Positions 15,719 to 27,624 of a stretch of 28,508 nucleotides of DNA are shown piece after piece. This DNA is from a virus. Taxonomy: Duplodnaviria; Caudoviricetes. The position numbers and the translations under genes are program-made. Positions within the stretch are counted from its first letter, which is position 1. Every line of letters starts with the position of its first letter. Where the stretch lies: positions 1 through 28,508 of the IMG/VR virus record IMGVR_UViG_3300032314_000061; one strand, written 5' to 3'. The notes under the pieces were generated by a model that ran no database searches, was not told where the DNA came from, and saw nothing but the letters and a program-made list of their open reading frames with translations.

Positions 15719-18700
15719 ATGGCAAATATTAATTGGAGTTTTGTAGACCAACAAGAAGGGTCTGGAGTTACTATTGGTTATGTTCCAAAAACTGACAACG
15801 ATAAATCAGGAGTAACTATTGGAAGTGGTTTTGATTTAGGAAGCAAAACCGAAGAAACATTATCAAGATTAAATTTAAGTCCTGATATAATTAATGAATT
15901 AAAACCATACTTAGGATTACAAGGACAATCAGCTAGAGATGTAGCTGGAAATTTAAGATTAGAAAAAGAACAAGTATCGCAAATTGATTCAGCTTGGAAA
16001 GCTTCATTTACTAATGATTTATCTAGCTATTTCCAAAGAAATTCAGGAAAGCGATTTGACGATTTAGACCCATCTTTACAAACTATCGCAGCCTCTGTTG
16101 GTACTCAATATGGAGTAGATTTAAAAAATAGAACTCCTAAATTCTGGGAACATCTTGTTAATAATAATTTTGACGGTGTTATTGGTGAATTAAAAAACTT
16201 TAGAGATGACTTCCCAACTCGCAGAAATGCAGAGGCAAGTTATTTACTTACAGAGTTTAAAAAAAAAATACCTGATTACCAATTTGTAGATGCTTGGGCA
16301 AAACCCCAAGAACTTGGTGGAGAATTATATTTAGATAAAGCTTTAAAAACTTATCAAGCACAAGCCAATATTATTAATAATCAAAGAGAGATTGGTAACT
16401 TTGAAGCACTTGGTGCAGCAATGTCTAAAAACCAAATGCTACCACTTCTATACAGAACAATGGTTGCTGAAAGTTTTGAACCAGAAGAAAATTTCTCAAT
16501 GGCAAACAATAAAGAGTTTTTTGATTCTTTATTTAAAGAAAATAATATTAATAGTTCTTTTTATGATTACTTTGCTGGTGCTGTAAGCAAAGATCACGCT
16601 GTGGCTTTAGCACAGAGAGTTAAACAGGAACAAAAGAATATTGAAATTTTACAACAAGCAGGATTTAGAGGTTCAGTAATAGATTTTGCATCTTGGATGC
16701 TAGACCCAGTAACAATGGGAACAGGAATTGGTGTAACTTCAAAATTGGTAAAAGCATCAACTTTTATTCCTAATTTAAGTAGAACTCAAAATTTTCTAAG
16801 ATCAGGACTTCTTATTGGTGCTGAACAAGGTGTATTTACTTCTGCCTTAGCAGCGGAATCTCCTTCAATAAATGCCTTTGATGTCTTAACAGCAGCAGCT
16901 TTAGGGAGTGCTCTTGGAGGCGGTATCAATGTCTTATTACACGGTAAGATACAAAAAGTAGCTCAAGAAGCGTTTGATAACTCCATTAAAGAAACAAAAT
17001 TAACTAAAACTCCTAAAGGGGAATTAGAACTACCAACTTACAAAGACGACCCCGAATTTATAAAAACATTTAATGATGTTCATTTTGGAATTAATGAAAT
17101 TTCAAATACTGAAAGTGTTGGTAAAGGTAAAAACGTAATTACTTTAGGAATAATTCCAGCAACAAGACACGCTTCTTTAGATGGTAGTCCATCACAAGCG
17201 GTTAGACAGGCTGGTGCATTATTAGTTGAGAACCCAACATTTTGGGCAACAAAAGGAGAAAGTTATTCTAATAATAGAGTTGTTTCTTCTCCAATCACTG
17301 CTGAAATAGTAAAGACTAGAATTTTACAAACTGCACAAGCAGCCGTAGCACCAGATATTAACTCAGCGTTTGTTGAGTGGATGAAAGTTAATGGAACTAC
17401 CAAATTTCAAAGAGGTATTGGCGGTCAGATGTTCAACATGTCTGCCAGAGAAGCCTTTGCACAAAAAGTATTTAGAGCAATAAACGCAACTGACCCTTCA
17501 AATAAAAATGCGGTTGATAAATTATTACTTAAAGATCCTCACATTAAAAAGGCAGCTGATGCCTACGCAAGAGGTTATAGGTATATTGGTCAAGAAATAA
17601 AAAATGCTGGAATAGAAGGTTCTGACAGAATTAAACTTGATAACATAAGTAAGAACGCTGACGGAACTGATAATGTTCAACCAATAACTTGGTATCAACC
17701 TCAAGTATGGTCTTTTGATAATTTTATTAATATTCATAAAATGGTTGGTGCTGATGGTAAACCCATTGGTTCTCAAGGAATACTTGAATTAATAAAAGGT
17801 GCAATTTTAAGTAAGCAACCTTATTTAGCTAAACAAAGCGACCTAGCAACTTTAATAGGTCAAAAAGATGTTAAACCAAATTTTGTTGAGTTAAATAAAG
17901 TTAACCAAGTTGTTAAACTAGAAGAAATTAAAACTCTTAAAGAAAAATTAAAACTTGAAAAAGAGTTTTTAAAGAAAGAAAAAGAAAATCTTGTAGTTGA
18001 TACTAATGGTAATGTTGTTCAAGATCGTTTGGCATCCAGAAAAGAAAACATTAAACAGATTCAAGAACAGATTAAAAAATTAGATACTGAAGTTAAAGAC
18101 GCACAGGTTAAATTAGAAAAAGATTTTATAGCTAAGGGCGAAAAAGAAGTTATAGCAGATATAACTCCAGAACGTGCTACAGCAATGGCTTCTGCTATTG
18201 TTAAATTCTTAGAGCATAGTCATACAAAAGCTAACGGATTTGATCTTAAGCAACTTTTAAAGATGAAAGATGTAAGTGAACTTAGAGTTTACTTAGATAC
18301 TGAATTTAAAAGTATGTCAGCGACTACTAAAGAAAAGCTTATAGCTGACTTAGGTAATTCAATGGACTTCATTACTTCTGGAAGATTAGAAGAAAGAATT
18401 AAATTAAATTCAAATTACGAAGCAGTTATTAATGGCGTTAAATTAAGATTAGACGACTTATTAAATCGTAACTCTGACGGCTTATGGAATAATTACGTAA
18501 GCGAAATGAGTGGTCATATAGGGCTAGGTAAAGTTTTAGGATTAAAAAGTAAAAACGACTGGTACAGATACTTAGACAGTCTTAAGTCCGATATAGAATT
18601 ATCTTACAGAGCAAAAGAAACTGAAGGTCTTAAAGGCTGGAGAAATAAAATATTTAAAGACGAAGAATTAAAAACATTAGATAGCATTTACGAACATCTA

Positions 18701-20072: not shown

Positions 20073-22886
20073 ATGTCATTTGCAATTAATAATTATACAG
20101 GAAATGGGAGTACAACTACATTTTCAGTTACGTTTCCGTACATAACTCAAAGCCATGTACAAGTACGACTTGATAACGTATTAAAAACTTTAGGTGTTCA
20201 CTATACATTTCCAACATCTTCAACTATTCAATTTACAACTGCACCAGCAAACGGTGTAAACATAAATTTTAAAAGATCATCTAATCAATCTGCTAGATTA
20301 GTAGACTTCCAAGACGGTTCTACAATTACTGAGTCAATTTTAGATCAAGACAGTAATCAAATGTTTTACATGTCTCAGGAAGCTATTGACTCTACAGCTG
20401 GGGTTATGGCTCTTGATGGAGATAATAAGTGGGACGCTACATCAAAAGTAATTAAAAACTTAGCATCACCAGTAAATGACAACGATGCAGTTAATAAAGC
20501 ATTTATAACTACAAATTTACCAGCAATTAATACTGTAAATTCAAACATAGCTAGTGTTGCTTCAGTAGCTACTAATATTGCGACTATTAATTCTGTAAAT
20601 TCTAATAGTACAAATATAAATTCAGTAGCTTCTAATTCTGCTAATATTAATTCAGCAGTTTCAAATGCTACAAATATTAATTCAGTAGTTGCTAACTCGG
20701 CAAACATAAATACTACCGCAGGTGCAAATGCAAACATTACTGCTGTAGCTTCGCAAATTACCCCAACTAATAACATCGGAACACTTGCTGGATTAGCTAC
20801 ACAAATTACAGGTGTCTATAATATTAGAACTGATGTAAGTGCGGTAAACTCAAATAGTGCAAACATAAATTCAGTCGCTTCAAATATGGCGGCAGTAACA
20901 GCAGTAAATTCTAATAGTACAAATATTAATGCTGTTAATTCTAATAGTTCAAATATTAACACTATTGCTACAAACATCGGCAAAGTTAATACTTTATATA
21001 CAGAGATTGCAAAAGTTGTTGAAGTTGCTAATGACCTTCAAGAAGCGGTTAGTGAGATTGATACAGTAGCTAATAATATTACTAACGTAAATCTTGTTGG
21101 AAATAATATTGCAAATGTTAATGCGGTAAGTGCTAACAGTTCAAATATTAATGCTGTTAATTCTAATTCTACAAATATAAATACTGTAGCTACTAATAAT
21201 ACTAACATTACAGCTGTTGGTAATAATATTAATGCAGTTAATACAGTTTCAGGAAATTTAACTGGAATTAATAGTTTTAACGAAAGATACAGAATATCTG
21301 CAACAGCACCTACAACTTCATTAGATATTGGAGATTTATGGTACGACAGTGCTAATTCAAATTTAAGAGTTTATACTGCTAATGGTTGGCAAATAGCTTC
21401 AGATTATATTCAAAATTTAGTTAACGATTATAAGTATGACATTACTGGTTCTCCTTCTTATGTAGAAGGTGCATCTAATAATGCTAATGCCGCAGTATTT
21501 GATTATGCTGAAAACAGTTTAGTAAACGTATTTGTTAATGGTCTTAGAATTATTCCTACAGAAGATTATACTTTAAGTAAAAATAACAATGTAGCTAGAG
21601 TTACATTTGTTTCTCCTTTAATAAATGGAGATGTTGTTTACATACAAGTATTTAGAAAATTACAAACAGTAGAAGAACAAACACTTCAAGGTTATGTATC
21701 AACTACATTAGGTTATAAAAATACTACAGAAGGATTTAAAAATACTACTGAAGGTTATAAAAATTCAGCACAAACTTCAGCAACTAATAGTGCAAACTCT
21801 GCAACAGCAAGTGCTAACTCTGCAACTGCTTCTCAGAACTCTGCAACTGCCAGTGCTTCAAGTGCCGCTTCAAGTTTACAATCTTTAAATAGTTTTAATG
21901 CGGCTTATACTTATTCAACTACACCACCAAACAACCCTGCAAATGGTGCTATTTGGTTTGACACCGCAACTACAAGATTAAAAGTTTATGTTTCTCAAAA
22001 TAATACTGGTTGGGTAAACGTAGGGACTTATGTTGAAGGATTAATAACTAATTATACTTATACAGCTACACAGAATCAGTCAGTATTTAATGGTGCTGAT
22101 GTTGATGGTAAAACTTTAGCTTTTAACGCAACAGGAAACGTATTTGTATTTGTAAACGGAATTAGAATTACACCAACTGCTGACTATGTATTGTCTGCTG
22201 GAAATACTTGTACTTTAGGAGTAGCCGCTAACGCGGGTGATGTTATTTACATTGAAGTTATCCAAAAGATTTCTTTAACAGAAGAACAATTATTACAAAG
22301 TTATGTTGCTTCAGCTTTAGCAGATAAAAATACTGCAACTACTCAAGCTGGAATATCAACTACACAAGCTGGAATATCAACTACAAAAGCAGGTGAAGCA
22401 AGTGCAAGTGCCGCTTCAGCTTTAACTTCAAAAAATAATGCCGCAACTTCTGAAGCAAACGCATTAAGTTATAGAAATACTGCTGAAAACCATAAAAATG
22501 ATGCTCAGACTGCGAAGGTCGCCGCAGAAGCCGCCGCCGCATTAGCTACAGTTGGTGGTGGTGCGTTTAAAATAACTGCAAACGACACAACTGCAAACGT
22601 ATTTAATTTAAAAGTAAGTGTAGGAAACGGAATTACTAAGACGTTAAATAATGCTGGTGGAAATGAAAGTGTAACTCTTTCATTACCATTTACAGAAACA
22701 GTAATAACACCAACAAATGGTCAAACTGTATTTAACACAGCTTATGTAGTGAACTTTGTTCAGGTTTATGTGAACGGAGTTAAATTAATAAAGGGAGTAG
22801 ATTTTACCGCAACTAACGGAACAACAATAACATTAAATGATGCTCTGTTGTCTAATGACGTAGTTGAGATTGTTAAATTTGCTTAA
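20073..22886 (+). CDS. gp17: Tail fibre protein
   Basis: T7 gp17-type N-terminal anchor (YTGNGSTTTFSVTFPY...V.V, R..VDF.DGS...E..LD....Q..Y..QEA.D), then Asn-rich repeats and duplicated beta modules. Confidence 0.92.
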   Translation: MSFAINNYTGNGSTTTFSVTFPYITQSHVQVRLDNVLKTLGVHYTFPTSSTIQFTTAPANGVNINFKRSSNQSARLVDFQDGSTITESILDQDSNQMFYMSQEAIDSTAGVMALDGDNKWDATSKVIKNLASPVNDNDAVNKAFITTNLPAINTVNSNIASVASVATNIATINSVNSNSTNINSVASNSANINSAVSNATNINSVVANSANINTTAGANANITAVASQITPTNNIGTLAGLATQITGVYNIRTDVSAVNSNSANINSVASNMAAVTAVNSNSTNINAVNSNSSNINTIATNIGKVNTLYTEIAKVVEVANDLQEAVSEIDTVANNITNVNLVGNNIANVNAVSANSSNINAVNSNSTNINTVATNNTNITAVGNNINAVNTVSGNLTGINSFNERYRISATAPTTSLDIGDLWYDSANSNLRVYTANGWQIASDYIQNLVNDYKYDITGSPSYVEGASNNANAAVFDYAENSLVNVFVNGLRIIPTEDYTLSKNNNVARVTFVSPLINGDVVYIQVFRKLQTVEEQTLQGYVSTTLGYKNTTEGFKNTTEGYKNSAQTSATNSANSATASANSATASQNSATASASSAASSLQSLNSFNAAYTYSTTPPNNPANGAIWFDTATTRLKVYVSQNNTGWVNVGTYVEGLITNYTYTATQNQSVFNGADVDGKTLAFNATGNVFVFVNGIRITPTADYVLSAGNTCTLGVAANAGDVIYIEVIQKISLTEEQLLQSYVASALADKNTATTQAGISTTQAGISTTKAGEASASAASALTSKNNAATSEANALSYRNTAENHKNDAQTAKVAAEAAAALATVGGGAFKITANDTTANVFNLKVSVGNGITKTLNNAGGNESVTLSLPFTETVITPTNGQTVFNTAYVVNFVQVYVNGVKLIKGVDFTATNGTTITLNDALLSNDVVEIVKFA
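20523..21280 (+). repeat. Imperfect 10-residue (30-nt) repeats in tail fibre, consensus NIN(S/A/T)V(A/N)SNS(A/T)
   Basis: e.g. NINSVASNSA NINSAVSNAT NINSVVANSA, and NINAVNSNSS / NINAVNSNST; recurring DNA AATATTAATGCTGTTAATTCTAAT. Confidence 0.85.
21711..21764 (+). repeat. 21-nt tandem repeat (GYKNTTE/GFKNTTE)
   Basis: ggttataaaaatactacagaa ggatttaaaaatactactgaa ggttataaaaat. Confidence 0.8.
22336..22385 (+). repeat. 21-nt tandem repeat (TTQAGIS)
   Basis: caactactcaagctggaatat caactacacaagctggaatat caactaca. Confidence 0.85.
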
Positions 22887-22916: not shown

Positions 22917-23522
22917 ATGACAAAAGCAAGAAACCTATCAAAAATTATAGATGGTTCTGGCAATTTAGTTGTACCTAATGCTGGTAATAATGCTCGTAGT
23001 TTAGGTATGGTTAAAGCCGATGGAACTCCTATAGATGCTTTAGATAGAGCAACAACAAGTGCAACAATAATTAACACAGCGACACCTTATGCTGGTCTTC
23101 TATCTGCTGGTATTGCGGCAGGTGCTTCAAACGCATTAGATGTAGACCCAGTATATAATACTACTGCTGTGGCAGGACAGTACGAAGATGCTTCTGGTAC
23201 AGTAACTAATCAAGCGATTAATTTAAAAAAACCACGAAACGGCGAGTGGTGGAACTGGGCATCATATGGTTTCGCAGGAATACCAACTTCAAATTGTGCC
23301 AATAATGGTGCTTATGATGGTGCTGGTGGTAATACATCTACATTAACTGCAATAAGTGTTGATAATATATTTAGCGGTTGGTCATCAACTGATGAATTAG
23401 GCGGAACTTATCAATCAAGAACAGTTCAAAACTGTAATTGTGGAAGTTTCAACTGTAGAACAAACTGCAACTGTAACTGTGCGTGTGCGTGTGATTGTAA
23501 TTGTGCGTGTGGTAACGGATAA
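22917..23522 (+). CDS. Small tail-fibre-associated protein with Cys-rich (xC)n C-terminus; putative radical SAM substrate
   Basis: MTKARNLS N-terminus, Gly/Ala/Thr/Asn-rich body, C-terminal NCNCGSFNCRTNCNCNCACACDCNCACGNG (11 Cys in 30 aa); AGGA upstream. Confidence 0.75.
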   Translation: MTKARNLSKIIDGSGNLVVPNAGNNARSLGMVKADGTPIDALDRATTSATIINTATPYAGLLSAGIAAGASNALDVDPVYNTTAVAGQYEDASGTVTNQAINLKKPRNGEWWNWASYGFAGIPTSNCANNGAYDGAGGNTSTLTAISVDNIFSGWSSTDELGGTYQSRTVQNCNCGSFNCRTNCNCNCACACDCNCACGNG

Positions 23523-23535
23523 CTAGGAAAAAATA

Positions 23536-24276
23536 ATGAAAATAACATATACAATAGATAGCGAAGCAAAAGATATTTCCTTTATTAATAATAATGGAAG
23601 TGTATTTGCAAAGTGGGGTGATGAAATCTCTGAAAAATCGAGTATTGGTTTATTAGCAGAAGAAGTTAAAAAATATTTACAGTTTCCTTCAAGACTTATT
23701 TCGGAAGGAAATAATATTTATATAACTTTAGATTCTAACAATAATTTATCAAAACCTATTTTTAAGATGATTGAAACTAACCCAACTAAAATGGGTGGCA
23801 TGGAATTTATTAAATATAAAGTTAATGAAAAACATGTTGGTCAAATTTATGTACCATTTAAAGACAGTTCTGATGATGAATACGCAATAAGACTAAACAT
23901 TAAAGAAGAAGATGTTTCTAAATTATTAGAGTTAATTCCTGATGCTGTTGAAGTAGCAAATACTGAAGAAGCATTTAAAGAATTTTATTATGCTAATTCT
24001 CCAAGATTAAAAGTAGTTGATACTTCTGATGCTGGAGAGTGGACTAAAATTAAAGTTCAATTAACTTTAGCTGGAAACAACGTATCTAAAAGTGATGTAA
24101 GAGTATTTGCTAAATCAGCAAGTGGTTATATTGCTAATAGAGAAGTTTATACTGATGCTAATGGTATTGCTGAATTTAAAGTATTACCTTACGGACTGGA
24201 ACAGGGAGAAAGTATGAAAGCTGAATTTGGCTTTAAATATGTTTCTAACATTGTTTCAGCAGATGTTCAGGCATAA
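23536..24276 (+). CDS. Hypothetical protein with probable C-terminal Ig-like domain
   Basis: C-terminal beta-rich segment KIKVQLT....V....VRVF......G......VYTDANGIAEFKV resembles bacterial Ig-like (Big_1) repeats; AGGA upstream. Confidence 0.6.
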   Translation: MKITYTIDSEAKDISFINNNGSVFAKWGDEISEKSSIGLLAEEVKKYLQFPSRLISEGNNIYITLDSNNNLSKPIFKMIETNPTKMGGMEFIKYKVNEKHVGQIYVPFKDSSDDEYAIRLNIKEEDVSKLLELIPDAVEVANTEEAFKEFYYANSPRLKVVDTSDAGEWTKIKVQLTLAGNNVSKSDVRVFAKSASGYIANREVYTDANGIAEFKVLPYGLEQGESMKAEFGFKYVSNIVSADVQA

Positions 24277-25108
24277 AGACGTACCAAATAATCAGACATT
24301 TTATAATTACATAAAGTCTAAAACAGATTGGGGACAAGCTGTTAATTGTCTTAAAAGAGACAATGATAGTGATTTAGATTTAAGTATTAATCTTGAATTT
24401 GATGCTAATAAAGTTTTAGAAGAACTTTTAAGTTTATATAAATCTGTTGGTGCTGTTACTTGGCAATCCCAAAACAGTATTCAATTATACGGATTAAGTC
24501 TTACTTATAATCCCAATCATTCTAAAGATTTATGGAAAAGAGGTTCTTTTGGAGAACCTAGATATAAAGTTTATAATCCAAAAGATTATTATGATGCGGT
24601 GATGAATGATAAAGATAATCATTTAAAAGATGATTACTTAGACAGTCTTTCATTTAATACTTTGTTACCAGAAGTTAAAACAAAACCTAATCTTTATAAA
24701 TTATTAAATAGTTTTAATTTTCCAGTAATTAGAGTTACTGCAAGAACAATAAATGGATTATTAGTTTATCCAACTCAAGGAACAGATGGTGGATTTCATA
24801 CAGACGACTGTCCATTTGAAGTTTTGCGAATAAATGTTTCATTATCTAATAATGGAAATTTTGGTTTAGAATATAAAAATAAAAAAGTTATCTACACAAG
24901 TGGGGGAGATAATCTAGTAGTTAATACAGATAAATTACACAGAGCATACGTTAAAGATGCGTGTAATTTTCAAAGAACCAATTTAATTATTGGTTTAGCT
25001 ACTTGGTTAAATTACGATGCTGCGAATAATTCATATTCGTTAAATAATCATTATGGAAAAACACACCCATACGATTTAGCAAAACAAAATCTATTAAGTT
25101 TTAATTAA
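24263..25108 (+). CDS. Fe(II)/2-oxoglutarate oxygenase, aspartyl/asparaginyl beta-hydroxylase-like
   Basis: R.T.R.....P......FHTD.....LRINVSL.NN ... G....VNTDKLHRA.......R.NLI gives an HxD...H triad plus Arg in a cupin fold. Start is probably ATG 24263 (track gives 24227). Confidence 0.6.
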   Translation: MFRHKDVPNNQTFYNYIKSKTDWGQAVNCLKRDNDSDLDLSINLEFDANKVLEELLSLYKSVGAVTWQSQNSIQLYGLSLTYNPNHSKDLWKRGSFGEPRYKVYNPKDYYDAVMNDKDNHLKDDYLDSLSFNTLLPEVKTKPNLYKLLNSFNFPVIRVTARTINGLLVYPTQGTDGGFHTDDCPFEVLRINVSLSNNGNFGLEYKNKKVIYTSGGDNLVVNTDKLHRAYVKDACNFQRTNLIIGLATWLNYDAANNSYSLNNHYGKTHPYDLAKQNLLSFN

Positions 25109-25127
25109 CCCCTAACTAAAATAATAT

Positions 25128-26582
25128 ATGAGTAACTCGCAAGACTATAACTTTGCTTCTTGGAAGAAAAAAGAACCAGAGATAATTAAGACTTACGATA
25201 CAAGTAATCCACCAGAATACAAATTTCATCTTCAATACCCAAAGGGTTGGAGATACTTAATGTATAAACCTCATACCTCTGAACTTACAGAGAATGGATT
25301 ACCTATATCGTTAGAGAGTATAAATATGGATTATACTAAGGGTCATTTTCACGAATGGACACCTAACTCTCCAAGTAACCCTGCAAAGAAATCTGATAAG
25401 CCAACTAATGTAAAAATTCAGATGGGTTTAAAATGTAATTATGCTTGTAGTTATTGTAATCAAGCGACACAAGTACCAAACTCATTTCAAGGTAATCCTC
25501 AAGAAGCACAGAAATTTTTAGATGAATTAGATACTTGGTTCAAAGGAGACGGAAATAAAACGAGATGGGAATTTTGGGGTGGAGAACCATTAGTTTATAT
25601 AAAAGTTTTAAAAGTATTAGCTGAAGGATTAAGAAAAAAATATCCTACAGCAGAATTTAATATTATTACTAACGCATCAATGCTCACTCCTGAGATTGTT
25701 GATTGGTTAGATAGTTTAGATTTTCAAGTTGGTATTTCTCACGATGGTGCTGTTTACAGAGACCAAAGGGGAGAAGATATACTTACTGTACCTAAAACTT
25801 TAGAAGCAGTTAAATATGCTTACAAAATTTTATTTCCTAAAGGTAGAATAGGTTTTAACTGTGTTCTTACAGTTAAGAATTATTCATTACATAAAGTTAG
25901 AGAATACATTGCAGAGAAGATGGGACTAACACCATTTGAAATTCCTCTTACAACAGAGGAAATAATGCTTCCTTATGATGCTGGTGGAATGATGTTATCG
26001 CCAACATTACCTGAAGAACAAAAGGAAATGAGAGAAGTTTTATTTGAAGAAGCGGCTTTTGGTTCTACTTTAAGTGTATCTACAGTTTTTCAAAAAATTG
26101 ATGATTTCTTTAATTCTATAAAAACACAAAGACCATTTACTGTATTTGGTCAAAAGTGTGGAATGGATAGTCCTGATATTCTTGCTGTTGATTTAAAAGG
26201 CAATGCAATGACTTGTCAAAATACAAACGCAAATCTTCCAAAGCATAACATAGGTAAGACAGAAAATATTAAAGCTATGGAAATGACTTTAGTTCACCAC
26301 TTCAGAACTAGAAGCGAGTGTGTAAGATGTCCAGTAGTTCAACTTTGTAAAGGTGCATGTTTATTTTTAGAGAATGAATTTTGGACTAAAGCATGTGATG
26401 TTTCTTATAACTACAACGTAGCAATGTTAGCTTCTGCTTTATACAGACTTACTGGTGGAATTTTACGTTACATAGAAGGAACACCTAGACGAGATAATAT
26501 GCACGATAAGTTTGAAGTTATATCTCAAGATTATATAGATAAATTAATAGTGCCAACAAAACAAGAAATTCGTATTGGATGA
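25128..26582 (+). CDS. Radical SAM/SPASM domain enzyme (peptide/protein-modifying maturase type)
   Basis: CNYACSYC (CxxxCxxC), WGGEPL, ITNA, GISHDG; SPASM C-x13-G-x4-C ... C-x2-C-x5-C-x3-C-x11-C. Confidence 0.93.
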   Translation: MSNSQDYNFASWKKKEPEIIKTYDTSNPPEYKFHLQYPKGWRYLMYKPHTSELTENGLPISLESINMDYTKGHFHEWTPNSPSNPAKKSDKPTNVKIQMGLKCNYACSYCNQATQVPNSFQGNPQEAQKFLDELDTWFKGDGNKTRWEFWGGEPLVYIKVLKVLAEGLRKKYPTAEFNIITNASMLTPEIVDWLDSLDFQVGISHDGAVYRDQRGEDILTVPKTLEAVKYAYKILFPKGRIGFNCVLTVKNYSLHKVREYIAEKMGLTPFEIPLTTEEIMLPYDAGGMMLSPTLPEEQKEMREVLFEEAAFGSTLSVSTVFQKIDDFFNSIKTQRPFTVFGQKCGMDSPDILAVDLKGNAMTCQNTNANLPKHNIGKTENIKAMEMTLVHHFRTRSECVRCPVVQLCKGACLFLENEFWTKACDVSYNYNVAMLASALYRLTGGILRYIEGTPRRDNMHDKFEVISQDYIDKLIVPTKQEIRIG

Positions 26583-27151
26583 CTACTTTAAATTTATTTA
26601 GCACACCAATTAAAATAGTTTCATTTTCAAATTTTGAAGAAATTAATAGAAAAATTGGCAAAGCAACATCTTTAGGTTTTAAAAAAAATTTTACTGATAA
26701 TTTACCAAAAGAAGAAGGTAAGGAATTACAAAAAATATTTATAGATGAAGCTGAATTATATTTAAAAGAAGTCTCAAATAAAAAAATAGATTTAGAGTTA
26801 ATTAAAAGTTGGACTACTTATACTAATAAATTTGGATTTAATACTCCACATTGTCACGCTGATAATACTGTTATTGGAGTTTATTACATAAAAACTTTTG
26901 ATAAGTGCGGAGATTTATTATTACACGACCCAAGAGGTTCTCATAGCTTTGTGCCTAAGTATGAAATTAATACTGCTGGTCACTCAGTTAGCGATAGAAC
27001 TTATCATAGAATAACACCTAGATGTGGTCAGTTAATTTTATGTCCAGCTTACGTTGTTCATTCAGTTGAACCTAATATGTCTGATGAGACAAGAATAAGT
27101 CTTGCAATGAATTTTAAATACAAAGATTACAACCAACTTAAACCAGAATAA
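26579..27151 (+). CDS. Putative 2OG-Fe(II) oxygenase (TIGR02466-like phage family)
   Basis: LFSTPI, SW......G.N.PH.H....GVYY, GDL...DPR, P..GQLIL.P.Y..HSVEPN.S...RISLAMN. Confidence 0.85.
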   Translation: MTTLNLFSTPIKIVSFSNFEEINRKIGKATSLGFKKNFTDNLPKEEGKELQKIFIDEAELYLKEVSNKKIDLELIKSWTTYTNKFGFNTPHCHADNTVIGVYYIKTFDKCGDLLLHDPRGSHSFVPKYEINTAGHSVSDRTYHRITPRCGQLILCPAYVVHSVEPNMSDETRISLAMNFKYKDYNQLKPE

Positions 27152-27154
27152 ATT

Positions 27155-27271
27155 ATGAAAAACAAAGACTGCAAATGCAAACCATGTACTTGCGGAAAAG
27201 AAGTTACCTGCAAGTGTGCTGAGAAAGTAACAAAGCTAAAAGAAAAACTAAAACAACTAACAAAAAAATAA
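27155..27271 (+). CDS. Cys-rich metallothionein-like peptide (38 aa, not in ORF track)
   Basis: MKNKDCKCKPCTCGKEVTCKCAEKVTKLKEKLKQLTKK*; three CxC motifs; starts 3 nt after the oxygenase stop. Confidence 0.6.
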   Translation: MKNKDCKCKPCTCGKEVTCKCAEKVTKLKEKLKQLTKK

Positions 27272-27450: not shown

Positions 27451-27624
27451 ATGGCAAAGAAAAAAGCTACGAAAACTGTTTCTGAAATGCTTGAAGAAGT
27501 ACAAGATCAACTTGCTGCTATTCAAGATAAAGTATCAGAAAATGAAAACGATTCATTAGAAGATGATCAAGATGATTTAGAAAATTTTGATTACGATGAC
27601 GATTTCGATACAGACGAAGATTAG
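27451..27624 (+). CDS. Small highly acidic protein (57 aa, not in ORF track)
   Basis: MAKKKATKTVSEMLEEVQDQLAAIQDKVSENENDSLEDDQDDLENFDYDDDFDTDED*; AAGG upstream. Confidence 0.65.
   Translation: MAKKKATKTVSEMLEEVQDQLAAIQDKVSENENDSLEDDQDDLENFDYDDDFDTDED

Follow-up and report, generated by a model that had tools for sequence, protein, structure and literature searches.

The system reported here, a Cys-rich protein and a radical S-adenosylmethionine (SAM)/SPASM enzyme encoded directly behind the tail-fibre gene of the phage record IMGVR_UViG_3300032314_000061, can be set beside several described enzyme-substrate pairs. CrpC of Methanococcus voltae, a seven-Cys SPASM enzyme with near-identical Cys spacing, has been shown to install ranthionine links in a protein; like the phage protein, its substrate CrpA has C-terminal Cys repeats, and it is co-encoded with a possible chaperone, CrpB (PMC13692751, main text and three supplementary files). 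CrpC/CrpA differs in lying in an archaeal chromosomal cluster and in carrying a C-x-x-Q/D motif within a 17-residue repeat; the same files, data set 1 possibly not among them, do not mention phage, virus or tail, and the CrpC family model TIGR04463 scores 29.1 bits on our enzyme against a cut-off of 525. In the available text of PMC8326336, the streptococcal peptide NxxcA carries a link between Cys23 and the C-beta of Asn20; the phage ladder contains the same N-x-x-C register, whereas NxxcB/NxxcA forms a single ring in a short peptide and the phage Asn stands mainly right before Cys. CteB, PapB and QhpD resemble our enzyme in supplying its closest solved fold (CteB) and its top NCBIfam matches (the QhpD family and PapB), and in a three-Cys auxiliary cluster I (AuxI) with an open site, whereas the phage substrate would be a virion protein without a cleaved leader.

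In T-even phages (gp37/gp38) and lambda (Stf/Tfa), the tail-fibre tip is a module that brings its own assembly protein or adhesin. The phage cassette resembles these modules in its gene slot, in block exchange, in a partner gene directly after the tip gene and in self-removing C-terminal domains; they are not known to have a modifying enzyme or an Asn-Cys ladder. Radical SAM cassettes have been noted among tail-fibre genes in the host recognition cluster of SAR11 pelagimyophages, a likeness of position, the available text giving no substrate, motif or mechanism (PMC7029224), and tail-collar proteins have been proposed as oxygenase substrates (PMC2938197, available text). We found no description of the ladder-enzyme system in the literature searched, most subscription journals lying outside the search.

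The window is the entire 28,508-nt record, linear and ~69% complete, of a T7-like podovirus. Six open reading frames (ORFs), all on the + strand, directly follow the 937-amino-acid (aa) fibre gene, with gaps from the fibre onward of 30, 13, −14, 19, −4 and 3 nt (negative values are overlaps), a grouping far beyond chance; the tight, co-oriented packing that an earlier note on this sequence had described is real, and its genes were mostly named correctly. The core consists of three genes, for the Asn-Cys ladder protein, a partner with an immunoglobulin-like (Ig) domain and the SPASM radical SAM enzyme. We propose, with slightly better than even confidence, that the enzyme forms thioether crosslinks at Asn-Cys sites of a distal fibre subunit, the whole being an exchangeable tip module; that it acts on the 201-aa protein at all seems to us quite probable. 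The system is real and widespread, and likely applies a known kind of chemistry to a new class of substrate. The features are as follows.

20073..22886, + strand: T7-type tail fibre (proximal), 937 aa; PF03906 at E 4e-37; last ~60 residues the predicted socket
22917..23522, + strand: predicted distal fibre/tip protein, 201 aa, putative substrate; other phages have its tip domain joined to fibre shafts
23430..23510, + strand: Asn-Cys region N172-C198; two NC pairs, one isolated NC, 8-Cys alternating ladder
23536..24276, + strand: partner protein, 246 aa, putative tip chaperone or adhesin; AlphaFold model at a predicted local distance difference test score (pLDDT) of 93.3; intimin fold match
24263..25108, + strand: AspH-like Fe/2-oxoglutarate oxygenase (optional); H179, D181, H226 and R238 invariant; 16/116 loci
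25128..26582, + strand: radical SAM/SPASM enzyme, 484 aa; PF04055; seven further invariant Cys; CteB the nearest solved fold
26579..27151, + strand: TIGR02466/PF13759 Fe/2-oxoglutarate oxygenase (optional); passes both cut-offs
27155..27271, + strand: 38-aa Cys/Lys peptide, a backbone gene of the lineage; lacks Asn-Cys; outside the exchanged module

Ladder and enzyme occur together

To sample the family, a profile scan was run, which returned 602 viral relatives of the enzyme in 48 of the 64 parts of IMG/VR and 211 in GTDB genomes. From each set we retrieved the 80 best, which biases the sample toward closer relatives, and its loci are not independent; 7 duplicates, 1 fragment and 3 GenBank loci were removed, leaving 88 viral and 80 genome loci. 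Where at least 3.2 kb of upstream sequence was available, the enzyme is preceded on its own strand by an ORF containing a run of alternating Asn/Ala/Asp-Cys at 61/63 viral and 53/57 genome loci (114/120), in agreement with the earlier suggestion that enzyme homologues might sit beside (xC)n-tailed ORFs. Downstream of the enzyme such an ORF was found at 0/57 viral and 0/58 genome loci, and on the opposite strand at 7/88 and 2/80.

In the reverse direction, a DNA pattern for the ladder found 120 loci in 18 of the 64 parts, of which 80 with flanks were analysed; we required a frame open for at least 50 codons and 2 kb of following sequence, and 16 loci lacked room or were cut. A radical SAM gene is present at 44 of the 46 in-ORF ladder matches, 38 of these genes belonging to the family of the window enzyme, and at 0 of 18 control matches in short frames; in both exceptions the Cys run is internal to the protein. 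Ladder and enzyme co-occur in both directions and move as one block. This pairing, found in nearly all related phage loci sampled, argues that the enzyme likely cross-links the host-binding tip.

The loci lie among tail genes, as had been anticipated, and the ladder often forms the C-terminal end of a tail fibre that is otherwise plain; the system is not peculiar to T7-like phages, as the earlier note had framed it, since it occurs in podo-, sipho-, myo- and jumbo phages and in prophages too. Cultured carriers are the Achromobacter siphophage JWF, the Ralstonia ackermannvirus RSP15 and the jumbo phage RP12; a virion proteome of JWF or RSP15 was not found in the literature searched. In RP12 the ladder gene is an unannotated 65-aa ORF (L003:3860-4058) between ORF74 and ORF75, ahead of the partner gene. 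In this short protein an Asn-Cys ladder comes after an HxH motif, and beyond the partner gene lie three radical SAM genes.

The Asn-Cys site and the enzyme

The 201-aa product of 22917-23522 is composed of an N-terminal docking arm (MxKAR type), a Trp-rich tip domain, Asn-Cys sites and a C-terminal ladder. It contains 12 Cys, eight of them alternating between C184 and C198, and N172, C173, N174, C175, N179, N183, C184 and C188 are invariant in 32 aligned rows. The protein has no Pfam, PHROG or NCBIfam match (NCBIfam at E up to 1) and no tblastn match among 50,697 GenBank phage records, its Atlas leads all lie below 0.8, and three other ladder carriers match no NCBIfam family. Targets of the CXXX-repeat class (TIGR04114/04115), which we take to be radical SAM targets with Cys at every fourth residue, were considered and rejected, the ladder having a period of two and no NCBIfam match. 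The carriers of loci L060, L116, L118 and L177 have a short ladder with Ser-Tyr-Cys triplet repeats ahead of it; a second radical SAM gene is present in L060.

We counted the surroundings of Cys in 69 dereplicated carriers out of 137. Asn stands immediately before 173 of 223 isolated Cys (those with no Cys two residues away), against a background of 7%. More than 25 residues before the ladder it still precedes 126/171 isolated Cys, while it precedes 0/36 Cys more than 150 residues up the shaft and 8/129 Cys in enzyme-less relatives. Inside the ladders the 436 spacers include 271 Asn, 94 Ala and 47 Asp. From these counts the recognised unit looks like an Asn-Cys dipeptide, which is new here.

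Phage fibres with HxH metal tips are known, and the ladder might likewise be an unmodified metal-binding needle in a trimeric fibre, the enzyme targeting the partner or a small molecule. In a trimer, alternating Cys would be apt for axial metal sites, HxH stands just before the ladder in some distant carriers (the RP12 ORF, L195 and L203), and Ala and Asp are tolerated at distal ladder positions. However, a needle leaves unexplained both the near one-to-one link between ladder and enzyme and the Asn that precedes isolated Cys in loops well away from the ladder; such dipeptides, scattered in tip-domain loops, fit enzyme recognition better than a purely structural metal ladder. Action on the partner is further disfavoured by the partner slot, which is taken by unrelated proteins while ladder and enzyme persist. 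We consider the metal needle improbable.

Of 8,000 scored candidates, 1,250 are relatives of the 484-aa enzyme at E 1e-20. PF04055 is above cut-off, the SPASM signature TIGR04085 reaches 27.7 bits against a cut-off of 27, and ten Cys are invariant in 47/47 aligned rows, namely C103, C107 and C110 of the SAM motif and seven more at positions 344, 363, 398, 401, 407, 411 and 423. The spacing of the seven parallels that of CrpC, whose Cys lie at 333, 352, 390, 393, 399, 403 and 422; three of these ligate AuxI, leaving one iron open for a substrate Cys, and four ligate auxiliary cluster II (AuxII) (PMC13692751, available text). The predicted ligands in our enzyme are C344, C363 and C411 for AuxI and C398, C401, C407 and C423 for AuxII. 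The structural model (pLDDT 89.8) has CteB as its closest solved fold (Z 22.6, root-mean-square deviation (rmsd) 3.8, 343 residues aligned), followed by ChlB (Z 19.8), anSME (18.4), TigE (17.4) and EpeE (13.1). In a quick tree with Shimodaira-Hasegawa-like approximate likelihood ratio (SH-aLRT) support and no bootstrap, the enzyme clusters with the enzymes of T4-like myoviruses (SH-aLRT 100) and away from those of other T7-like carriers, and plasmids contain no match at E 1e-30.

Several observations weigh against the thioether proposal. At isolated Cys, position −3 is Asn in only 35/223 cases, position +3 is Asn in 78 and Asp in 19 (97/223), and a Cys stands at +4 in 54/223; with the enrichment at −1 rather than −3 or +3, the known i/i+3 thioether links fit poorly. 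Two Asn-Cys sites kept by most relatives are lost from the 201-aa protein of the window. The enzyme is ~18% identical to the CteB, PapB and QhpD ranthisynthases, and all maturase hidden Markov models (HMMs) score it far below cut-off, the best being TIGR03906 (66.6 bits, cut-off 453), with NF047865 at 61.3 (340) and TIGR03974 at 25.1 (425). Six catalytic-site positions were mapped by hand from the CteB alignment, CteB having F112, F152, T186, S210, H363 and Q364 there (PMC10288494, available text). Our enzyme has N111, W150, I180, S204, Q364 and N365, four of them invariant in 47/47 rows, an identity of 1/6 with CteB (F/F/T/S/H/Q) and of 2/6 with StsB (Y/T/I/S/K/L). The N-terminal sheet in the position of a recognition element (RRE) for peptides that are made on ribosomes and modified after translation (RiPPs), with strands 31-37, 40-47 and 52-55, is modelled without the helices that should follow; the range aligned with CteB, for which only first and last residue are given, starts at model residue 27 and CteB residue 1.

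The loci themselves also count on this side. Since they are related, the co-occurrence counts are not independent events, and 6/120 enzyme loci are without a ladder gene. Among the exceptions L077 is rearranged, L176 has an apparently broken carrier, L173 shows no carrier and L094 is a myovirus fragment in which no ladder was found; L159 and L172 hold chromosomal orphan enzymes, in whose genomes neither a ladder gene nor an Ig partner was found. The orphans (L159:7977-9341 in a Sulfuritalea metagenome-assembled genome (MAG), beside apparent type I secretion genes, and L172:7995-9359 in a Gallionellaceae MAG) make up a clade of their own, which may be a domesticated branch acting on another substrate.

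The same enzyme could instead act on the same fibre-tip substrate by another chemistry at Asn-Cys, such as an adjacent ring, epimerisation (PoyD-like), Cys oxidation (anSME-like) or a backbone change. The strong Asn preference at −1 and an active site unlike those of CteB and StsB would suit this, and the fold-list neighbours ChlB, anSME and TigE perform C-C and other reactions. Against it, the auxiliary Cys number seven and not the canonical eight, the EpeE fold match that would favour epimerisation is the lowest given, and a Gln follows the AuxI Cys where anSME has an Asp. PoyD epimerises every second residue, matching the period of the ladder, but epimerisation needs a conserved enzyme Cys as hydrogen donor (PMC8326336, available text), and the sole candidate, C245, is present in 35/47 rows. 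On balance such other chemistry appears unlikely. A bolder version, on which we place only tentative weight, is that the enzyme reads Asn-Cys and performs an undescribed reaction, either a ring between neighbouring residues or staples linking the chains of the fibre trimer, in hundreds of phages.

Low HMM scores and a distinct active site point to a separate family that is built like a thioether synthase; judged from its sequence and model, the enzyme is a distinct family with thioether-synthase architecture and its own active site. It would work like CrpC/CrpA, QhpD/QhpC and NxxcB/NxxcA while falling outside the described families by HMM (QhpD, CrpC) or by active site (CteB).

In the thioether proposal, the 201-aa protein would dock by its N-terminal arm onto the main fibre's C-terminal domain. 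Inside the infected cell, the host would load the enzyme with three [4Fe-4S] clusters, a substrate Cys would bind the open iron of AuxI, and the enzyme would abstract a hydrogen from a nearby Asn (Asp or Ala in the distal ladder), yielding a Cys-S-C link; the simplest link would run from sulfur to the C-beta of Asn, as in NxxcA. The Ig partner may chaperone or cap the tip, and optional oxygenases and second enzymes may add variable decoration. The outcome would be a rigid, protease-resistant or metal-binding host-contact tip.

A probable fibre tip in an exchangeable module

Ladder carriers range from 84 to 726 aa, and several are plain fibres. A profile search at E 1e-10 gave 116 clusters, in which hits to shaft and to tip are mixed. 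Specifically, the carriers of L048 and L069 combine a T7 fibre N-terminal domain with collagen repeats, and those of L057 and L088 contain collagen repeats. The tip domain of the window protein, starting at about residue 23, is homologous to the end of the L048 carrier (E 6e-8) and follows different shafts across the 32 aligned rows. In JWF and several other carriers a Hint domain starts at the last ladder Cys (some of the Pfam matches are weak), so self-cleavage would leave the ladder C-terminal. L024:3333-4394 and L202 have, instead of the Hint domain, an extension of ~160 aa that starts KIICT after the ladder and has no Pfam match. Three tandem carrier paralogues occur in L024, and likewise in L091 and L093, perhaps forming a heterotrimeric tip.

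Fibre ends and the starts of the next protein co-vary. Of 40 distinct pairs, 34 fall into four classes without cross-pairing; the class of the window (15 pairs) joins a VEIVKF-type fibre end, or a T4-like variant of it, to an MxKAR-type start. Relatives without the enzyme have different tip proteins in this slot, which give lectin or Ig matches and have no ladder. The fibre C-terminus and the N-terminus of the Cys protein would thus act as socket and plug, a code that is new here and argues that 22917-23522 encodes a distal fibre subunit. It is likely the tip, its presence in the virion being suggested by the fusions and the docking co-variation.

The block is also exchanged as a whole. Up to the N-terminal part of the fibre, a stretch of 9,431 nt, phages L309 and L316 share 96.9% identity, and downstream they share 89%; their fibre ends, carriers, partners and enzymes differ, the enzymes being 91% and 35% identical to the window enzyme, respectively. 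We read the cassette as an exchangeable module for the tip of the tail fibre; whole cassettes are swapped between phages that are 97% identical. L316 and the window become similar again at 27154, where the CxC peptide begins (93.5% over 245 nt), and the peptide therefore lies outside the exchanged module.

These results also bear on whether the product is instead released, as a RiPP, a host-directed metabolite or a DNA modification, with the position in the tail operon incidental. Fe/2-oxoglutarate oxygenases are common cargo of marine phage variable regions (PMC2938197 and PMC7029224, available text), and some carriers have just 92-126 aa. On the other hand, ladders are fused to fibres of 600-700 aa with T7 adaptor and collagen domains, the block recombines along with the fibre C-terminus, and 54 of the 58 genome loci of at least 10 kb adjoin phage structural or lysis genes. 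In addition, Pfam, PHROG and NCBIfam scans of the window's cassette genes found no protease, exporter or transporter family, and a RiPP pathway proper, with a short leader-core precursor and a protease or exporter, was rejected, the carriers being often fibres. A released product is thus highly improbable.

Accessory genes and what the module may mean

Accessories were counted in 116 loci with carrier, enzyme and room. The Ig-type partner is present in 94 of them, and the slot accommodates at least three unrelated protein types, a diversity to be expected where a slot serves chaperones or adhesins; a profile pooled from the non-Ig partners strayed into Ig proteins, and its counts (24 and 111/116) were discarded. 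Residues 156-246 of the window's partner form an Ig domain that matches intimin/invasin (Z 10.8, rmsd 2.2, 85 aligned), and its N-terminal 150 residues, barely tested, gave no fold match.

At least one oxygenase is present in 81 of the 116 loci (one in 43, two in 23, three in 15) and none in 35, indicating that oxygenases travel with the module but are not needed. The two Fe/2-oxoglutarate enzymes reported earlier as cassette members are thus present here, yet were rejected as core genes. The AspH-like type and a second radical SAM gene occur in 16 and 18 loci, respectively, and 0/18 enzyme-less T7-like relatives match the accessory profiles. Of the gene names given in the earlier note, the Cys-repeat, Ig-like, radical SAM/SPASM and second oxygenase names hold, while the AspH-like label of 24263-25108 is a lead only, from an Atlas cluster at 0.96 with PF05118 on 16% of the cluster members. 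That gene has an HxD..H..R set invariant in 13/13 rows, no Pfam match at E 0.1 and, for the oxygenase alignment, no match to a PDB profile; judged by homologue starts, ATG 24263 is the more likely start over TTG 24227. The product of 26579-27151 reaches 66.3 bits with TIGR02466 (cut-off 62.5), and the two oxygenases do not align with each other. A likeness to Asn/Asp beta-hydroxylases beside an Asn/Asp-rich tip is suggestive only, and hydroxylation of the ladder is a side guess.

The CxC peptide, which had been counted as a sixth cassette member, belongs to the phage backbone. The 38-aa protein is 78-100% conserved, all 15 pattern matches lie in the phage clade of the window, and it has no family match; its Cys pattern recalls metallothioneins. 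As a substrate or cassette member it was rejected, for it has no Asn-Cys, is missing from four relatives (L007, L009, L011 and L028) and stays, at 93% DNA identity, in a phage with a different cassette.

Other loci carry further genes. A 344-aa protein (L005:6947-7981, also in L019), whose motifs we take to recall ATP-grasp ligases, and a 399-aa protein (L057:8362-9561) have no Pfam or NCBIfam match, and the former has no PDB sequence match. Between carrier and enzyme, some loci have fatty-acid-desaturase-like genes or a CDP-alcohol phosphatidyltransferase gene (L079:3368-4878 and L129:6383-7126).

In the window, the G+C content at third codon positions of the six ORFs (0.13-0.19) is similar to that of core genes, and no excess of promoters or terminators was found. 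The backbone encodes a primase-helicase, polymerase A, portal, capsid, tail tube, nozzle, internal proteins and the T7-type fibre. GenBank relatives are distant, with ~65-71% identity across short pieces among the 15 matches listed; Pelagibacter phages account for 32 of 55 matching records. A 1441-aa internal virion protein has an N-terminal pesticin-type lysozyme domain (15719-16170, PF16754, E 7.5e-35) and diverges strongly among close relatives (39-70% identity). A 57-aa ORF at 27451-27624, conserved in relatives, has a very acidic C-terminal half.

The usual treatment of receptor-binding fibres is as plain folded proteins. If the thioether proposal is true, a widespread class of phages matures its fibres by RiPP-type radical chemistry, which would account for those radical SAM and oxygenase genes of host-recognition islands that are presently classed as auxiliary metabolism. 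Such fibres could not be expressed, modelled or swapped without their enzyme, and enzymology would gain a maturase that is processive, has a motif of two residues and possesses an unusual active site. Furthermore, if the reaction should prove to be an undescribed one, oxygenases and ligases would diversify a rigid or metal-binding needle, and chemistry would co-set host range.

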